Source: Candidatus Heimdallarchaeota archaeon (GTDB taxonomy: Archaea > Asgardarchaeota > Heimdallarchaeia > Heimdallarchaeales > Heimdallarchaeaceae). Taken from it: DNA of 32,000 bases. Shown here one piece after another: positions 653 through 29,337 of the stretch; within the stretch, counting starts at the first letter, position 1; each line of letters begins with the position of its first letter. The notes below the pieces were generated by a model that was given only the letters and a program-made list of their open reading frames with translations, made no database searches and was not told the origin of the DNA. The DNA lies in assembly GCA_030668875.1 (NCBI GenBank), contig DAOVER010000024.1, forward strand, positions 1-32,000, read 5' to 3'. The position numbers and the translations under genes are program-made.

Positions 653-2227
653 ATGATGTCAAAGAGAACCATTCACAGAATTAATCATGTCATCGGATAT
701 ATATTCTATGTGTCGTTTATTGTCTACCTAATTCTATCTCTAATTTCTATAATTCAGAAAAGCGTAGAATTAGGTGTGGGTGGCATCATATTGAATATAT
801 TATCATTGATTTTAGAAATATTAGGACCGATTTATATGATTTATTTCCTTGTCCAACTTATTGATGGTTTTCTCAAAATAGGTGAATTGGCCTATGATAT
901 AAATGCAATAGATGGTCAAAAGAAGGTTAGTGTCATTATCCCCATACACAATGTTCCAATTCCAGTTTTAGAGGAAACTTTGGTGGGTTTAACTAAACAA
1001 ACTTACAAAAATTTTGATGTTTGGGTTGGCGATGATAGTCCTGATAAAATTCTAAGGAAAAAATATGAAAATCTGTGTAATAAGTACAATTTTACCTACT
1101 TTCATGCAGAAAATAAGAAACTTAAGGCTGGGATGTTAAATCTTGTTATTCCAAAAACAAAAGGAGATTATGTTATATTTTTTGATGTAGACCATGTTCC
1201 TACTGAAGACATTCTCGCGAAATTTGTTGCAATTTTAGATCAATATCCAGAATATGAATTTGTTCAAGCAAAATATGGTTTTCGCAATGCTACTAATGTA
1301 CTCCATGTATGGTCAGCAATGACTACAAGCCAGATTTTTTGTTCTCAAAATGCACGACGTACTTTTGGAGCAGTTCTTTTCCAAGGAGCATCTGCTTGTT
1401 TTCGCAGGAGTGGAGTTCAAAACATACCTGAGAATGTTGTTATAGAAGATTATTCCCACTCAATTTCTCTTATGACTCAAAAGAAACAAGGTTACTTCTT
1501 AGATGAATTTGCATCTCAAACATTACTACCAAGTACCCTAGATCATCAGATGTCACAATTGTATCGGTGGATAAAAGGGCAAACTAGTTCCTTTGTTGCT
1601 CATATCAAAGACATTCTTATGAGGAGATTGAGCTTTAAACAATCAGCAGATTTATTCTTTACATCCACCATTATATTCGGGGTCACAAGTTTCTATGGAC
1701 TTGGATTTGTTTATGGTTTTATGTATTTATTCAAAACACCCTACTTTAGAGCCGGAGGTTTAGATGAATACTCACAAATTATCATACCAATATTAATCAT
1801 GATAATTTACGGAGGTACGTTCGCTATTATGATAATTTATTTCATCAGATCAAAGTTTCTAAAATTGAAAGCTTGGCATGTTCCGTTCTATGTAATCTTT
1901 GGTGGATTAGCTTCACCTTTTCTAAAAGTAGCAGCGATAGATGGACTATTTACATCTCTATTCAGGGTAAAGAAAGTTGAATGGAATAAAAGACTAAAAT
2001 TAGGATTATGGGGAGCATTCTTTTCATCAATTGGAATTCTATTCCTTGGTCTTACAGTGATTTCAACACTGGATCTAGCAGGGATAATAAACTATTATGG
2101 GATGAATTTCTACTTTGCGATTTTTCTGGCAGTAGGTTTTGCTCTTACTTTTGTATTACCATTCATCTTAATGGCAAGGAACAAGTTTCAAACTGCAGAT
2201 TTCGAAGAAAAGCACATTTTCCACTAG
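653..2227 (+). CDS. Processive GT2 glycosyltransferase (cellulose-synthase/BcsA-like), multi-pass membrane protein
   Basis: DDS, KAG, DVDH, VQ, FQGASACFRR, IED and QLYRW (QxxRW) motifs in the expected order; 2 N-terminal and several C-terminal TM segments. Confidence 0.9.
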   Translation: MMSKRTIHRINHVIGYIFYVSFIVYLILSLISIIQKSVELGVGGIILNILSLILEILGPIYMIYFLVQLIDGFLKIGELAYDINAIDGQKKVSVIIPIHNVPIPVLEETLVGLTKQTYKNFDVWVGDDSPDKILRKKYENLCNKYNFTYFHAENKKLKAGMLNLVIPKTKGDYVIFFDVDHVPTEDILAKFVAILDQYPEYEFVQAKYGFRNATNVLHVWSAMTTSQIFCSQNARRTFGAVLFQGASACFRRSGVQNIPENVVIEDYSHSISLMTQKKQGYFLDEFASQTLLPSTLDHQMSQLYRWIKGQTSSFVAHIKDILMRRLSFKQSADLFFTSTIIFGVTSFYGLGFVYGFMYLFKTPYFRAGGLDEYSQIIIPILIMIIYGGTFAIMIIYFIRSKFLKLKAWHVPFYVIFGGLASPFLKVAAIDGLFTSLFRVKKVEWNKRLKLGLWGAFFSSIGILFLGLTVISTLDLAGIINYYGMNFYFAIFLAVGFALTFVLPFILMARNKFQTADFEEKHIFH

Positions 2228-2295
2228 CTTTTCTCATTGCAATTCTCATAACATTTATTATATTTGAAAGATTAAGAAGAACAGAAGCGATTTCA

Positions 2296-3336
2296 ATGGA
2301 AAAAGACTTGGAATATATGATCCCACTAAAAGAACGAGATACTAAGAATTTCTTTTTTAAAGTAATTAAACCTTCAAAAAAAGTATGGTTCATTAGTGTA
2401 TTAATATTTCTCAGTTGTTATGTAGCATGGTTTTTATCGATCTGGTTTCTAAGTGGCGCAGAAAGCCCTTCACAAAAACTATTAATCACAATTTTAGTTG
2501 TTATTACTTCTATAGTATCTCCACTTTTAGGTTTATTTCTCTGGAAACTGGTTGGTGGATGGGTCTCTAAGAAACTGATATTTGAAACATTGAAAACAAA
2601 ACATGAGAAAAGAGGGGAAATACGAGAAACCTTAAGCAAACTAAAAAAAGACAGAGAATATCATAAATTTAGTTTCTTCCGCATTTCAATTGCACTTTTG
2701 TTTGGTTTTGATTTAACAACAGATTCAAAGTACTATTTGGAGGAAAAAACACATAGTATTGATATTGGAAGTTTCAAATCGTTTGTAGGTACAAGACTAT
2801 ATGATATAATGTCAGCATCTCTTGGAGTAGGATTTCTCATTGCAACTATAGTTAAATCTGCTATATCAGATCCTTTCGTTGGATTTACAACAGGGGCTCT
2901 TGTATTACTATTTGCCCCCATTCTTATATGTTGGTTAACACCAGTTGTTTGGGCTATAAAGGATGCACAAATTAAGTATATTAAACCAAACAATCGTGAT
3001 TATGAATTATCAGATAAGGTAAGAAAAAGTCTTGTAAGCATGTTCTTTGGCATATCTGCATGGTTAGCAGGATTCAGTTTCTTCGTAAATCTAGCAGAAG
3101 AAATGACTACATTTGATGATAAATTTGCAGCCAAAGTGGCTATCTTCTTCATAGCTTTTGCAGGAGTACTAATTGTCACGATATTAGCTTTTGGAACCTT
3201 GTATCTATTTGGTATGCTGTATCTCAATTTCTTCCATGAGAAAAGAGTTAATGATTTAAGAGGGGAACTAAGTGAGATCTTACCTTATGCGCAAACAAAT
3301 GCAATAGTTTCTGAAGAATCAGAACATCTAATATAA
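2296..3336 (+). CDS. Hypothetical multi-pass membrane protein (346 aa)
   Basis: About 6 hydrophobic helices. Start moved from 2008 to the ATG at 2296 to avoid a 220-nt overlap with the GT2 gene. Confidence 0.75.
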   Translation: MEKDLEYMIPLKERDTKNFFFKVIKPSKKVWFISVLIFLSCYVAWFLSIWFLSGAESPSQKLLITILVVITSIVSPLLGLFLWKLVGGWVSKKLIFETLKTKHEKRGEIRETLSKLKKDREYHKFSFFRISIALLFGFDLTTDSKYYLEEKTHSIDIGSFKSFVGTRLYDIMSASLGVGFLIATIVKSAISDPFVGFTTGALVLLFAPILICWLTPVVWAIKDAQIKYIKPNNRDYELSDKVRKSLVSMFFGISAWLAGFSFFVNLAEEMTTFDDKFAAKVAIFFIAFAGVLIVTILAFGTLYLFGMLYLNFFHEKRVNDLRGELSEILPYAQTNAIVSEESEHLI

Positions 3337-17079: not shown

Positions 17080-20073
17080 TCACTTCCTTTTCTGATGATC
17101 AGGACAGAGTATCACTGTTTCTTCTTTGAAGAGACTCTTTTTAACTACTTCCTTTCCATGAGTACTACAAACTACTTTTCCGCATTGTGAACATTTCTGA
17201 ATATGATCATTACAGGAAAAATTTTCGCAGAATTCGCATTTCTCTGCATAATCAGTAGAAACAACACTTTTGCAGGATGAGCATACAACAGCATGATTTG
17301 TACAAATTATCTTTTTAGACAATGAACCTTCTATAGTATGATCTTGACATAAAACTTTTCCACAAACACTGCAAACATTAGGAGTGGAAACAAACAACAT
17401 TTTGGAAGATTTCTGTTCTAGACATATTTCACAAAGAAGATGAATTTCAGTGCCTAAAGCTGATTCAGCTATCCCTTTAAGTTGGAGTTTATTGCCTTTC
17501 TCATCTGCTATAGATATTTCTGCGAGGGATACAGGTATATAGATAATTGCGGCATAAATATCTTTAATTTCACTAGCTTTTGGAATGATAAAATCCTTTT
17601 TACTTAGAGTAAAATTACTGTCTTGTAGAAGCTTAACTCTTGGAAATGATTTAAGCTGAGTATCGATTGATTTGATTTTTTCAACCCCTTCCTCAATTTC
17701 CTTTATGTGGTTCTTAATTACTTCTGGACCAAACTTTATTGTTTCTAGAGCTTTATTGTAATCCCCTACCTCACTGTTGCTCTTAAATTTGTATTTGTCT
17801 GTCATCAAAGGTTTTAGAGCAACATAAATTCCCTTAGCTTGTTCAATTTGAGCATGGAATTTCTTCACTCTATTTCTCTTACTATCAATTACTTTGAAAA
17901 TCTCAGTTCTTTCATTTTGCAGTTCTTCTGCCCAGTGATCAATTTCAGCTTTATGTTCTTTTTCGATATTCACTAATCCTTCCTCAACAGATTTCGTCCA
18001 TGCTTGCCCATAGAAGGTTTCATCAACAAGCAACACATCATGAAAGGATTCCAATATTATTTCAGGAGTTCTTTGAATTTCTAACTTTCTGATATTTGAA
18101 GATGTAGCACCATATAAACTACCAAGATTTTTGAGAGGAAGAACTGAAATGAGCTCTTCGAAAACCTCCTCAGCTTGAATAGGTATTGATTTCTGCCCCC
18201 AGATTTCTTCATCTCCTCCAAACTCTATTTTATCAAGTAATGGGAATATTCTTTTGATCGGTAAATCAAGAGTTACTTCTCCCCAACGATCAGCATTTGC
18301 ATAATTTACTCGAATTCTTCGTTTAGCTTTGATTCTGAAATCCAGGTACAAGAATGGTATGTAAGCTAGCTCTAGGTTTTGAGTCCCCAGATAACTTAAT
18401 TTTTTGTTTCCGAAGAATTTTTCCAATAGTTCCTTAAATTCAACAGGTTCGTATTTCAGATACTGATCTTTCATTGTTTTTATTATGTTAGAAAGATCAA
18501 TTAGTTCCACTTCTGGTTCTTTCTCAATGACTTCATGGAAATCATCCTTTGTTTCTGTAGGTAAGGTTTCTAGTCCTTCGGGTTGAGTTTCTGATTCTGA
18601 ATCAGAAGTCTCCGTTTTATCGATTCCTGCTTGTTTATCTAAGAGACTTGTTCTGCTAGAAAACTTTCTTATTGAAGCTAATTCTTTCTCTAAATCATCT
18701 AAACTAAGTTCCTTTGAGATATCCTCTAAATCCATAGAATCGATATCGTGATCATAAGCGCCGATTTGCTTACATAATGTTGGTGGAGGAAAATCATACA
18801 TTTTAGCGACGTCTTCATCTGATAGAGTTTTGTGGACTGAATAGAGTCTGCGAGTGCTTATGTGAACTGGATCAGGGAAGACATCAGGTGAAAGAATGTA
18901 AAATTCACCACTTTTGAATTGTTGTAACTGGTCAACAATGAACCGTGCTTCTGGTTGAGATTGAAGCATGTTATCAACGATTCTGAGATCTTGAGGAGTA
19001 ACAAAACGACCAAAGAAGAAAGTACTCACTTGTCCAAAAGCCTTGTAATCGACATCACTGATATTTTGCGTTGCAACAAGCATTGACAAACCAAATTTAC
19101 GTCCTTGTTTGAATAGTAATTGCAACCATTGTTTCGTTACAGGATTTTTCGGATGAGGGGGTATGAGTTGTGGTGGTCCTGCTAATTCATCTATATAGAA
19201 AATCAATTGAGGATCGGGTGAAGGGTTAGATCTGATGTATGTATAGAGGCTCTGAGCCAAAGTTGTTATGTAAATTTCTCTTAGTCTTAAATTTGTCAAA
19301 GTATTCAGGTAAATTATAGAAATTCTGACTTTGTTAGGATCTGTTGGTGTTATTAGAGTCTGAATTGAGAGTTTTGGCCCTAGATTGAATACTAATGAAG
19401 GTGCTCCAACATTGATAGATTTTATTCTTTTAATCAACGAATCTTTTTCTCTTTGTGAAAGCAGTGTTCGTATATTTTCTGGTAAGTAAGCAACTTCTGT
19501 TTTTATTAAATCAATCAACATCTCAAAATCTGCTATCAGAATATCTTTGAGTAGACACTGTTCAAAAAGCGACACCAAATAAGCTTTAATTGCTCCTCCT
19601 CTTTCAGAATTTAGTTTATAACCCAAAACATTGGCAATGGTTGTTGCTATTCCATCGATAGCAAGAATCTTTTCTTCTCTGTCTAACTCTTGAGGAGGCA
19701 TGATTAGTGGGTTTATAGAAAGAGGTATTCCTTTCTCTGATGCTGGAGTGAAAACAACAATCTCAACCTTATCTTTATACTGTTCAAAAAACTCTTTAGA
19801 GATACCATAAGGCTTCAACTTATCATGTTCCTCAACAATAACAAGACTAGTTATATCCCCTTGTGGATCAATGATAATTGCTGGGATATTATTCCTTACA
19901 GCTTCTTCGATGAGAATCTTACAAACGACAGTTTTTCCTGAACCACTCTGACCAAAAACACTGATGTGTTTGCTCAAAGCTTTAACAGGTAAATAAACAT
20001 CTTCCTGTGTGGAAAATTCTTTTCCAATATGCATTGATGGGTTCTGAGCATTTTTCTCTGGCATCTTCTTCAA
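17080..20073 (-). CDS. HerA/FtsK-superfamily ATPase (DUF87/DUF853-like) with coiled-coil region and Cys/His-rich zinc-finger tail
   Basis: KHISVFGQSGSGKT, IIDPQGD, FYIDE, KQGRKFGLSMLVATQN, DYK, FGR. C-terminal 117 aa hold 15 Cys. TTG start at 20073; alternative ATG at 20064. Confidence 0.85.
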   Translation of the reverse strand: MKKMPEKNAQNPSMHIGKEFSTQEDVYLPVKALSKHISVFGQSGSGKTVVCKILIEEAVRNNIPAIIIDPQGDITSLVIVEEHDKLKPYGISKEFFEQYKDKVEIVVFTPASEKGIPLSINPLIMPPQELDREEKILAIDGIATTIANVLGYKLNSERGGAIKAYLVSLFEQCLLKDILIADFEMLIDLIKTEVAYLPENIRTLLSQREKDSLIKRIKSINVGAPSLVFNLGPKLSIQTLITPTDPNKVRISIIYLNTLTNLRLREIYITTLAQSLYTYIRSNPSPDPQLIFYIDELAGPPQLIPPHPKNPVTKQWLQLLFKQGRKFGLSMLVATQNISDVDYKAFGQVSTFFFGRFVTPQDLRIVDNMLQSQPEARFIVDQLQQFKSGEFYILSPDVFPDPVHISTRRLYSVHKTLSDEDVAKMYDFPPPTLCKQIGAYDHDIDSMDLEDISKELSLDDLEKELASIRKFSSRTSLLDKQAGIDKTETSDSESETQPEGLETLPTETKDDFHEVIEKEPEVELIDLSNIIKTMKDQYLKYEPVEFKELLEKFFGNKKLSYLGTQNLELAYIPFLYLDFRIKAKRRIRVNYANADRWGEVTLDLPIKRIFPLLDKIEFGGDEEIWGQKSIPIQAEEVFEELISVLPLKNLGSLYGATSSNIRKLEIQRTPEIILESFHDVLLVDETFYGQAWTKSVEEGLVNIEKEHKAEIDHWAEELQNERTEIFKVIDSKRNRVKKFHAQIEQAKGIYVALKPLMTDKYKFKSNSEVGDYNKALETIKFGPEVIKNHIKEIEEGVEKIKSIDTQLKSFPRVKLLQDSNFTLSKKDFIIPKASEIKDIYAAIIYIPVSLAEISIADEKGNKLQLKGIAESALGTEIHLLCEICLEQKSSKMLFVSTPNVCSVCGKVLCQDHTIEGSLSKKIICTNHAVVCSSCKSVVSTDYAEKCEFCENFSCNDHIQKCSQCGKVVCSTHGKEVVKKSLFKEETVILCPDHQKRK

Positions 20074-20149: not shown

Positions 20150-20506
20150 CTACAAACCAGCAATTAAGAATAGTATTCCACCAATTATAACTAATAGTCC
20201 ACCGATTCCGCTTCCTACAATACCAAGCACAATTAGTAGGATACCCAAAATTATCCAATCTAATCCGAATCTTCCAAGTGCCAAGAGAATAGAAATAACA
20301 CCGATTGCAATCAATATTATACCTATGACCAGAGCTTCTAATCCTCCACCAAGTTCACTAACCCAATTAGCTTTATTAAAAATATCAACAATACCACCTA
20401 AGGCTTCTCCAAGTATTGTTAATACTCCTACTGCAACTTCAATTGCTCCTCCTAGAACTGCTAGAATGGAACCTACATGTGAAAGTGATTTATTTCGCTT
20501 TGCCAT
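20150..20506 (-). CDS. Small Gly-rich multi-TM membrane protein
   Basis: 118 aa, almost entirely hydrophobic GxxxG-type helices. Confidence 0.75.
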   Translation of the reverse strand: MAKRNKSLSHVGSILAVLGGAIEVAVGVLTILGEALGGIVDIFNKANWVSELGGGLEALVIGIILIAIGVISILLALGRFGLDWIILGILLIVLGIVGSGIGGLLVIIGGILFLIAGL

Positions 20507-20573
20507 GTTAGTGGGAACTAGTTTTATTATTTAAATTTTTAGGAAAAAGATATTTGTTTTTAATGAAAACATA

Positions 20574-20936
20574 TCAACGATTTCTTGTTGAAGCAACAAT
20601 ATAGATGCTTCCCCCAATAATGATTATCACGCCTGGAATACCTAATCCTATAATTCCAACTAGAATAACTAATATTCCTCCTAGCAGGATTCGCTTTTCC
20701 CAACTCACGAGAATTATTGCCGATGCACCAAGTGCTATACAAATAACTGTTAAGATTAAAGGGTGCAGTTCAGTAATATAAAAAGGTGTCCCAATAATCA
20801 GTCCAATAGCAAAACTAGGTAGGTCAACAGTCATAAAATGGTATATGATTAGAACGATACCACCGATGATAAAGAGTATACCACCACCAATTGAAATCCC
20901 TTGACTAATTCTAATATACCCTTGTTTAGTCACCAT
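20574..20936 (-). CDS. Small Gly-rich multi-TM membrane protein, probable tandem paralog of 20150-20506
   Basis: C-terminal LLGGILVILVGIIGLGIPGVIIIIGGSIYIVAS parallels ILGILLIVLGIVGSGIGGLLVIIGGILFLIAG. Confidence 0.75.
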   Translation of the reverse strand: MVTKQGYIRISQGISIGGGILFIIGGIVLIIYHFMTVDLPSFAIGLIIGTPFYITELHPLILTVICIALGASAIILVSWEKRILLGGILVILVGIIGLGIPGVIIIIGGSIYIVASTRNR

Positions 20937-20980: not shown

Positions 20981-21811
20981 CTACTTAAAGGTAGCTCTTG
21001 CAGATATTATATGTGGACTTACTCCTTTTTGGAATCGTACTATAACAACATTGTTTCTGGAAGAATTTTTACCATGAATGCGTGATATTGTACCAGTTAA
21101 TTGCTTACCTGATTTAACATAATTTATGCTTACCTTTCTTCCTAAATAACTGCTAATTGGCAATTCAATATCATGAAGATGTAAAATTACAGATCTATTA
21201 GTTGATTTACCTGATGCATCATGAAGCACAGAATGGACAATTCCATATGTCTTAGACAAAGTAACTTTCTTCTTAGCTTTTGCTTTCTTTTTAGAAGTTT
21301 TAGATTTTATCTTTCGCATAGCTTTTGCTCTTTCAATATACTTTACAGTAGCTGGCGAAACACCTTTCTTCACGGCAATAGTTGCTTTGGGTTTGACTAC
21401 AGGTTTCTTTGTTTCAGATTTTACTGCGGGTTTTTTAACAACGGTTTTCTTTGCTGGAGTTTTAGCGGCTAGTTCAGGTTTTTTAACAGATGGTCGCACG
21501 GATGTTTTCTCTACTTCTTTCTTCAAAGTGGGAGGTTTAGGTATTGTTGCTTTATCTACTGTTTTTACTTTGGATTTAACTTCAGTTTTCTTTGCGGGTG
21601 CTTTAGCAACAGGTTTTTTAGCTGGAGTTAATACTTCGTTTGCACCTAGAATCATTTTTTCAGCAGTTGATTTTCCTATACCAGGTAATTGTGATAACTC
21701 GTCTGCTGAAGCTTTGGCTAGTTTTTCAACTGTGTTGAAACCACAATCTACAAGAGTTTTAGCTGCTTTGGGTCCAATTCCTTTAATATTCTCTATTTCG
21801 TTAATTGCCAT
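20981..21811 (-). CDS. rpl35ae: Tandem HhH domain + Lys/Pro/Ala-rich linker + divergent ribosomal protein eL33 (L35Ae)-like domain
   Basis: IKGIGPKAA...LPGIGKSTAEK HhH pair. C-terminal YLGRKV..SGKQLTGTISRIHG...VVIVRFQKGV matches eL33 (LIGKKV..SGK.I.GKI.R.HG..GVV.ARF.KGL). The symbol refers to the C-terminal domain only; this may be a paralog. Confidence 0.7.
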   Translation of the reverse strand: MAINEIENIKGIGPKAAKTLVDCGFNTVEKLAKASADELSQLPGIGKSTAEKMILGANEVLTPAKKPVAKAPAKKTEVKSKVKTVDKATIPKPPTLKKEVEKTSVRPSVKKPELAAKTPAKKTVVKKPAVKSETKKPVVKPKATIAVKKGVSPATVKYIERAKAMRKIKSKTSKKKAKAKKKVTLSKTYGIVHSVLHDASGKSTNRSVILHLHDIELPISSYLGRKVSINYVKSGKQLTGTISRIHGKNSSRNNVVIVRFQKGVSPHIISARATFK

Positions 21812-27930: not shown

Positions 27931-29337
27931 TTATTCCCTAATTAAGGTATTTGCACCATAGATAAGTTTCTTTGCTGAAGTTATCCCTATACCTCTTATT
28001 TTGCTTAATTCTTCAGGTTTAGAGTTTGCAAGCTGATCAATTGTTTCAACGCCACCATCTTTAAGCAACATAGCAATTTTTTCTCCAACTCCTGATATAT
28101 CTACTATCCTCAGTTCAGCTTTCTTATCTGTAAAAATTTCAGTTGAATCTATTGTTTCTTCTCCATCATCAATAATTTCTATTTCGAATGGTAGAGTTTT
28201 TTTTGCTTTAATTGAAGGTTTACTTACAGACGGGAGTCTTCGAGTTTTCTTTCTTTTACTTCCTGGAGGTGCAGGGATTTTATCTATCTCAGGATCTATC
28301 TTCCTCACAGGATGAATAAAAGCTTCAGATTCATTTCTGATAAGTTCACTCGGCTTTCGAAGATGCTCAACTTCTTCAAATACAGTTTCCTTATCCTTAA
28401 GATAATCTGAAGGTTTTAACAGTCTCTCACTTTTAGGAGGAGTTAGCTTCTGTTCAACTATTTCTTTTTTCTTGGTTGGTTGTTGAACAAGTTTCTTAGT
28501 TTTTGTTTCTGTTTTTACTGTTTCAATAGTTTTCTCATGTGAGAGTTCGCTTGGTTTAACTGTTGTATCAGCCACTGCATCGATTGTTTCTCGCTTTTTC
28601 AGATACTGTGTGGGTTTGAGTATGTCAACAGATTCAACCTTTTTCTCTTTTTTGGGTGAAGGTTTTGTAACAATTGGATCACCCATAATTTTCTTTGGAG
28701 CTTTGGGTTTAATTGCTTCTGGCTCAAAAATTGTATCGCGTTTCTTAATAACATCACTTGGCTTAAGTAGAGTATTTACAAGAGGTGCTTCTGGTTCTTC
28801 TTCCTCTTCTTCTACTTTCACTGGAGGCATTATTGTTACACTAGGAGATATTATCTCGTCTTTTTTAAACAGTTCACTGGGTTTAACAATTTCTGAAGCT
28901 GGAGATACAAGACTTTCAACGTCAGTTGTCATTTCTCTTTTCTTTGAAACAGATTCAAGAGGTTCTTGTACAACTTTGGCTTCTCTAATATCCAAACCAG
29001 AAGAGTGCAATGAGGCACCTTTACCCAAGTTTCTTACTAGTTCAATAAGTTGATAGAAATTGATATTTGTAATACCTACATCTGAAAAATATTCTGCTAA
29101 CCAGTTTGCAAAACGGTGGACATTTACCTCAGATCCTAGCATTTTTTCCCAAAAATTCATTATTATCGTTGTAAGTTGATCAAATGAAGAATATTTATGA
29201 GTCTGTGTTATATGTTTACCATCATATAAATCTAGAACACCTGTCATGTGCTCACTAAATACATTCTCATTTGGTTTGATGACGACACTATATCTATAAC
29301 TTCCAATCAAACTTCTACGTTGTGGTCGCGATGACAT
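27931..29337 (-). CDS. Protein with small N-terminal domain, long disordered linker carrying KPS repeats, and C-terminal tandem HhH
   Basis: ISGVGEKIA...IRGIGITSAKKL HhH pair at aa ~411-465; Lys/Glu/Pro/Thr-rich linker. Confidence 0.8.
   Translation of the reverse strand: MSSRPQRRSLIGSYRYSVVIKPNENVFSEHMTGVLDLYDGKHITQTHKYSSFDQLTTIIMNFWEKMLGSEVNVHRFANWLAEYFSDVGITNINFYQLIELVRNLGKGASLHSSGLDIREAKVVQEPLESVSKKREMTTDVESLVSPASEIVKPSELFKKDEIISPSVTIMPPVKVEEEEEEPEAPLVNTLLKPSDVIKKRDTIFEPEAIKPKAPKKIMGDPIVTKPSPKKEKKVESVDILKPTQYLKKRETIDAVADTTVKPSELSHEKTIETVKTETKTKKLVQQPTKKKEIVEQKLTPPKSERLLKPSDYLKDKETVFEEVEHLRKPSELIRNESEAFIHPVRKIDPEIDKIPAPPGSKRKKTRRLPSVSKPSIKAKKTLPFEIEIIDDGEETIDSTEIFTDKKAELRIVDISGVGEKIAMLLKDGGVETIDQLANSKPEELSKIRGIGITSAKKLIYGANTLIRE
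28336..28890 (-). repeat. Six dispersed peptide repeats, consensus hhKP(S/T)(E/D/Q)h
   Basis: IVKPSELF, LLKPSDVIKKRDTIFE, ILKPTQYLKKRETID, TVKPSELS, LLKPSDYLKDKETVFE, LRKPSELI (aa 150-334). Confidence 0.85.

Follow-up and report, generated by a model that had tools for sequence, protein, structure and literature searches.

The window (the whole stretch of DNA that was analysed, 32,000 nt) corresponds to contig C71 of a Heimdallarchaeaceae genome 3.23 Mb in size and 92% complete. On its reverse strand, at positions 20981-21811, it carries an open reading frame of 276 amino acids in which an N-terminal HhH pair, (HhH)2, is joined through a lysine-rich linker to a divergent eL33 barrel. Close homologues were named Ca. 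Heimdallarchaeaceae. Window DNA was detected in marine sediment sequencing runs; an assembled contig spanned the entire fusion gene, although the run concerned is possibly the source sample itself. The same fusion recurred in independent genomes and metagenomes, which argues against an assembly artefact. The features of the gene were as follows:

20981..21811 (-), HhH-linker-eL33 fusion gene, 276 aa (open reading frame, same architecture in relatives)
21629..21811 (-), (HhH)2 module, aa 1-61 (Pfam HHH_5, RadA-like fold, invariant glycines)
21362..21628 (-), disordered, indel-prone Lys/Ala/Pro/Val-rich linker, aa 62-150 (pLDDT <50, composition)
21254..21361 (-), barrel-proximal basic segment, aa 151-186, a candidate rRNA-contacting extension (invariant lysines and predicted helix)
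20984..21253 (-), divergent eL33 (L35Ae) beta-barrel, aa 187-276 (Foldseek, NF003326, dN/dS)
21209..21229 (-), family-specific loop VLHDASG, aa 195-201, at the canonical YRR loop site (alignment)
21014..21094 (-), equivalent of the 22-residue L35Ae motif, yeast G69-P90 (alignment; motif definition from PMC9700599)
21849..21858 (-), putative archaeal TATA box, roughly 40 nt 5' of the ATG (sequence)

The gene is divergent from a pyroglutamyl peptidase gene, a conserved arrangement that would require a promoter of its own. A sigma-70 promoter scan, a method unsuited to archaea, scored below chance, and an Rfam scan of the window returned no match. The codon similarity of the gene to ribosomal protein genes fell at the 79th percentile, true ribosomal proteins ranging from the 4th to the 99th. 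Downstream on the same strand, in an order conserved across the family, were two small Gly-rich hydrophobic proteins with no family match in Pfam or NCBIfam (20150-20936, -) and a HerA/DUF87-type ATPase (17080-20073, -). At the start of the window (653-3336, +), two same-strand open reading frames, 653-2227 and 2008-3336, overlapped by about 220 nt and possibly represent a single gene with a frameshift or reflect a late start.

The HhH pair that the earlier note had placed at aa 1-60 was recovered by profile and by structure. HHH_5 (PF14520) matched aa 5-58 with 63.7 bits (E 2e-17, cut-off 27), and both hairpins retained GIG (G11-G13 and G44-G46), with G11, G13, G44 and G46 invariant in the family. 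The predicted fold of five helices superposed on the N-terminal domain of RadA (1xu4) with an rmsd of 0.9 A over 55 residues; over all RadA matches the rmsd was 0.8-0.9 A over 54-55 residues, and the hairpin motifs are shared with RadA/Rad51 N-terminal domains. The closest solved relatives included the DNA-binding HhH domains of Topo V, PolX and RadA, and the profile matches also included the NusA C-terminal repeats and the RNA polymerase alpha CTD; unlike the (HhH)2 domains of RadA, Topo V, PolX and NusA, the module described here is attached to a ribosomal protein. In a module tree of 62 columns and little resolution it was not grouped with the RadA domains. With a mean identity of 73% in the genus and a dN/dS of 0.13-0.30 it was the best-conserved part of the protein. 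With its hairpins intact, the module rather likely binds a nucleic-acid duplex. Three observations count against this model: the module is slightly acidic (net charge -1, pI 5.2) and is carried by uL24 on an acidic linker (net -31), its second hairpin is degenerate in Odinarchaeum, and the related folds of the NusA repeats and alpha CTD mediate protein contacts.

At the other end of the protein, aa 187-276 scored below the curated cut-offs of both eL33 families (PF01247, 18.7 bits against 27; NF003326, 27.7 bits, E 2e-6, against 85); the proposed eL33 match was upheld for the fold and failed for the family thresholds. The best 48 Foldseek matches of an AlphaFold2 model of the domain were eL33 chains. 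Because the alignment behind that model held canonical eL33 rows, the full protein was refolded from an alignment restricted to 22 Heimdallarchaeaceae sequences; the six-stranded barrel was obtained again, and its best 29 Foldseek matches were all eL33 chains. The TM-score with P. furiosus eL33 (9qf4_Bc) was 0.79 by target, eL33 chains reached Z values of 8.6-9.8 in VIA-align, which an ATPase barrel equalled, and a profile built on Asgard rows, canonical ones included, retrieved P. furiosus eL33 at E 4e-27. The protein is therefore classed as a divergent eL33 orthologue of new architecture, and not as a member of the eL33 families by their cut-offs. With archaeal eL33/L35Ae (P. furiosus 1SQR; 9QF4 chain Bc) it shares the six-stranded barrel, about 25% identity, the core glycines, the R-x-H-G motif, a single copy and a place outside the main operons; it differs in being three times longer, in its N-terminal HhH arm, in the replaced YRR loop, in a four-residue insertion in the conserved motif and in its scores below the curated cut-offs.

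A YRR loop is typical of eL33 and is variable among Asgard orthologues. Here the basic loop after strand 1 was absent, and it was also altered in Odinarchaeum and in family f4. The canonical YRR(S/G) columns were occupied by VLHD, in agreement with the claim that VLHDASG replaces the YRRG rRNA-contact segment, and H197, D198 and G201 of the new loop were invariant among Heimdallarchaeaceae. Within the conserved motif of L35Ae (PMC9700599), G240, R244, H246, G247 and F260 were retained, and the equivalents of yeast G79 and R82 were lost. The barrel was under purifying selection (dN/dS 0.12-0.18 against close relatives), with a mean identity of 59% within the genus against 73% for the HhH module. 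It drifted faster than uS4 and uL24: identities to genome G001 were 55% for the barrel, 72% for uS4 and 73% for uL24, and those to genome G026 were 45%, 69% and 68%. Both this drift and the loss of the YRR loop and of part of the L35Ae motif count against a ribosomal eL33.

The choice left by the earlier note, between the cell's real eL33 and a repurposed paralogue, depended on whether another, canonical eL33 was encoded. No second eL33 was found in the 92% complete source genome by six-frame searches with four profiles (PF01247, NF003326, a broad HMM and a canonical-only HMM). One copy each was present in the relatives with an eL33 match (35 of 60), among them the single-contig family genomes, including Ca. 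Heimdallarchaeum endolithica. Two copies were observed in a genome of family f6 (G047), the second on a 4.6 kb contig (L301, C109) with Heimdallarchaeaceae neighbours; this copy nested among Heimdallarchaeaceae sequences in the barrel tree, which groups by family (95 columns, long branches), and the contig was probably mis-binned. The source genome also encodes eL14, eL20 and eL32, the proteins that surround eL33 in the yeast subunit (PMC9700599). The gene does lie outside any ribosomal protein operon, as had been noted, but this was rejected as a sign of repurposing, since in Thor-, Freyr- and most of the other Asgard families surveyed canonical eL33 is likewise encoded outside such operons. 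As the sole eL33 homologue, single-copy in relatives, vertically inherited and under purifying selection, the protein is very probably the organism's real ribosomal eL33; the paralogue option was not supported.

The stretch between the two domains (aa 61-186) was confirmed as strongly basic, with 31% Lys, 13% Ala, 10% Pro, a net charge of +35 and a pI of 10.7. It was predicted to be disordered (pLDDT <50 over most of aa 65-144) except for a short helix at 153-161, and its barrel-proximal segment, aa 151-186, held invariant lysines at 169, 171 and 176. Within the genus the linker ranged from 102 to 178 aa with 46% identity and a dN/dS of 0.36-0.45; across all fusions it ranged from 5 to 250 aa with a net charge from 0 to +44, so what is conserved is the pairing of HhH with eL33. 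The term histone-H1-like tail held for composition only: the stretch is an internal linker that ends in a folded domain, neither its length nor its charge was conserved, and no histone H1 family or winged-helix match was found for the protein in Pfam or NCBIfam. Drosophila eL22 and uL23 bear histone-H1-like extensions, which are likewise Lys/Ala/Pro-rich, disordered and carried by a ribosomal protein; the likeness is compositional only, and those extensions differ from the internal linker described here. The known precedent is haloarchaeal eL32 (NF009401; PDB 1S72 chain Y, 9L94 chain Q), which shares the N-terminal (HhH)2 and a long linker, and whose HhH matched the eL33 module at E 1e-7. Both hosts are archaeal/eukaryote-specific large-subunit proteins, and eL32 neighbours eL33 in the subunit. 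The differences are that the ribosomal domain here is eL33, NF009401 matching the N-terminal part only, and that the linker here is basic whereas haloarchaeal proteins are acidic. The architecture thus parallels haloarchaeal HhH-eL32, and the protein is not an H1 protein.

Lys-rich tracts were rare in the source genome (10 of 2620 genes), and were carried among others by Rpo5, uS3, uS4, topoisomerase VI B and the eL33 fusion, so that the linker fits a genome-wide pattern of such tracts on information-processing machinery. Rpo5 (L300:634-1560; source genome C88:40133-41059) had an N-terminal restriction-endonuclease-like domain and a long Lys/Ala/Thr/Pro repeat tail; eukaryotic Rpb5 carries its jaw domain at the position of the former. 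A 4200-aa open reading frame with a topoisomerase VI subunit B-like start and a Lys-rich tract was observed at C32:9345-21983 of the same genome, its identity being judged from sequence only.

A survey across Asgard lineages, as proposed at the outset, detected HhH on all the complete eL33 copies (n = 28) from three families of Heimdallarchaeales (f1, n = 19; f3, n = 7; f4, n = 2). Some copies from the sister family f3 had two HhH modules, and one database relative had four. The fusion was also present in all four Odinarchaeum genomes, including Ca. O. yellowstonii (WEU40413.1, annotated merely as an HhH protein), and a 175-aa Odinarchaeia protein joined HhH to a canonical eL33 that passed the PF01247 cut-off (65.9 bits). 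In Odinarchaeia (L097-L100, L303) the HhH-eL33 gene is divergent from the TATA-binding protein gene, and the gene for the 175-aa protein was syntenic with that of Odinarchaeum in this respect. A family f23 protein likewise combined HhH with a canonical eL33 (50.4 bits, above the same cut-off), and in two 145-aa proteins from unplaced archaea the two domains were joined by about 5 residues. Families f6 and f16 had an eL33 with a basic tail and without HhH, and most other Asgard families had a plain 90-residue eL33. Any count of fusion origins rests on trees of 95 (barrel) and 62 (module) columns with long branches. In the sister family f3 the HhH arm occurs together with an RRS(R/K)R loop, and the VLHD change is specific to f1; the VLHD loop therefore came after the fusion.

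Hodarchaeales are a proposed sister group of eukaryotes. In 22 of their genomes (family f5, for example the one-contig G217, and G203), eL33 was not found with three kinds of query, while eL14 and eL20 were present; weak PF01247 matches were rejected as unrelated proteins. Hodarchaeales may therefore lack eL33, through loss or extreme divergence, and eL33 is perhaps dispensable in this class, which counts against the model preferred below. Databases label most HhH-eL33 proteins 'HhH domain protein' or 'hypothetical', and a 2023 review gave the eL33 distribution as 'unknown' in Heimdall- and Odinarchaeota (PMC9932298, Table 1); the identification made here resolves both entries. No published account of the fusion was found in the eL33, HhH and Asgard ribosome literature searched, most subscription journals lying outside the search, and an ESM Atlas search gave no usable match.

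The best two matches to the eL33 module in the source genome were the C-termini of two operon-encoded ribosomal proteins:

C68:50519-51814 (L119:409-1686), uS4 with C-terminal (HhH)2 and a basic linker, in a uS13-uS4-uS11 operon
C68:80757-81530 (L118:1441-2217), uL24 with C-terminal (HhH)2 and an acidic linker, in a spc-type operon

Between these two modules the identity was 79%, with 22 codon differences that are synonymous and 14 that are not; their identity to the eL33 module was 50-52%. The module was carried by uS4 in 11 genomes of the genus, an under-count since relatives' contigs often break in the repetitive uS4 linker, and by uL24 in 4 of the 30 examined; the uL24 modules sat among those of uS4 at two places in the tree. 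The source genome's own eL32 was without HhH. In 11 other Asgard genomes sampled, the module was found, among the matches listed, on eL13, eS25, aIF2-gamma and an FKBP isomerase (L207:1216-1917, L176:1489-2133, L200:826-1692, L210:1492-3024, L202:544-1788), the eL13 module being present in two families and in two copies in one of them. The presence of the module on uS4, uL24, eL13, eS25 and aIF2-gamma points to the translation machinery as its partners. The window also encodes, at 27931-29337 (-), a 468-aa protein of no known family with a C-terminal HhH, whose homologue in G026 is located some 3 kb away from the eL33 gene. A bacterial-type NusA in another Asgard bin (L134; G036 C320) is probably contamination, judging by its sequence.

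Such a spread raises the possibility that the module is a neutral passenger hopping between genes and tolerated on surface-exposed termini, as its presence on several unrelated proteins of unassigned function in the source genome and at least two gains on uL24 inside a single genus would allow. This is very improbable for eL33, where the module was kept in every complete copy of three families, was better conserved than the barrel and was multiplied to as many as four copies in the sister family. Alternatively, in a real eL33 the HhH could be a protein-docking domain that recruits a polymerase, a translation factor or a chaperone to the ribosome surface. The matches to the NusA repeat and alpha CTD profiles, the near-neutral charge of a module found with basic, acidic or 5-residue linkers, and its occurrence on the FKBP isomerase and on a HEAT protein are all consistent with docking. 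Docking was nevertheless considered unlikely: both GhG hairpins are invariant in the family, which is the signature of backbone binding, and the hosts occupy very different ribosomal sites, which a generic ligand fits better than one partner.

A further explanation is that in Heimdallarchaeaceae the eL33 orthologue has left the ribosome, its barrel surface changed, and serves as a free nucleic-acid-binding protein of chromatin or an RNA chaperone. The lost YRR loop with its new invariant HD-x-x-G loop, the long branch and fast rate of the barrel and the Hodarchaeales result would agree with this, as would an ES39 that was 13-20 nt shorter in the sole family member with a full 23S rRNA (n = 1). 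This departure is improbable, given that the fusion is older than the new loop, as the sister family has both the arginine-rich loop and the arm, that a canonical eL33 is joined to HhH in other lineages, and that the undoubted ribosomal proteins uS4 and uL24 bear the same arm. There was no assembled 23S in the source genome. Compensation through rRNA length was rejected, as total 23S length did not follow the fusion (3088 nt in Odinarchaeum, with it, and 3342 nt in family f17, without it). The 23S rRNA of G026 (L280:1501-4924; 3424 nt) carried about 385 additional nt between conserved anchors of its 3' half, together with a short ES39 and a changed helix close to reference position 1290.

The best explanation as a whole, to which we assign a probability of roughly 0.5, is a ribosomal eL33 with an HhH arm that grips duplex nucleic acid and so captures the free protein. 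The barrel would occupy the eL33 site on the solvent side of the 50S subunit and bind 23S rRNA there, as a clamp between domains II and VI; at this site yeast eL33 engages domain II, ES7 and ES39 at an early stage of assembly (PMC9700599). The adjacent basic segment may add rRNA contacts, perhaps offsetting the lost YRR loop. The (HhH)2 module would stay unburied, dangling on its flexible tether, and would grip the duplex backbone through its two GhG hairpins with no sequence specificity, the lysine-rich linker adding electrostatic avidity. Such a grip would concentrate the free protein at the DNA or nascent rRNA of the rRNA transcription site and favour early loading, after which the module would remain a mobile appendage of the mature subunit.

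Assembly capture is the likeliest job for the grip, although as a specific role it is by itself rather improbable and more doubtful than the duplex grip. uS4 and uL24 are early binders in E. coli assembly; eS25 is a late binder. For eL13, eL32 and eL33 early binding has been tabulated (PMC9932298, Table 2). Five of the six HhH-host ribosomal proteins are thus early binders (roughly p 0.1, the hosts being unevenly sampled), which weakly suggests capture of the free protein near nascent rRNA; the late binding of eS25 counts against it.

The earlier note had also raised an arm linking ribosomes to DNA, RNA or polymerase, and on this reading the arms would anchor mature ribosomes on the chromosome or on transcribing polymerase, so that translation is coupled to transcription. 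The position of uS4 at the mRNA entry site, a 125-residue linker that could span tens of nanometres, and the fall of the rare Lys-rich tracts on polymerase, topoisomerase and ribosomal proteins alike speak for it. However, eL33 and uL24 are distant from the mRNA path, some fusions are nearly without linker, and in imaged Heimdallarchaeota, which were Heimdall-group cells of unspecified family, DNA and ribosome signals were about 0.18 micrometre apart (PMC8776820). This separation disfavours a permanent tether between ribosome and nucleoid, which we regard as quite improbable, and a capture step would be useful in such cells.

The same module was thus added to at least five Asgard ribosomal proteins and an initiation factor, three of the ribosomal proteins being in this genome, and the HhH arm of haloarchaeal eL32 becomes one case of a recurring pattern of HhH add-ons to ribosomal proteins. 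The arm is a small expressible domain, and haloarchaeal eL32 offers a genetic model for what ribosome arms bind. Whether these arms have to do with the spatial separation between DNA and ribosomes is a question that they raise for these cells. It is conceivable, as a speculation that we consider improbable, that Asgards use the mobile (HhH)2 as a localisation tag that brings newly made early-binding ribosomal proteins and translation factors to the condensed DNA that harbours rRNA transcription, in cells that keep their DNA apart from a ribosome-filled cytoplasm; if true, the HhH tag would be a prokaryotic functional forerunner of the targeting of ribosomal proteins to the nucleolus.
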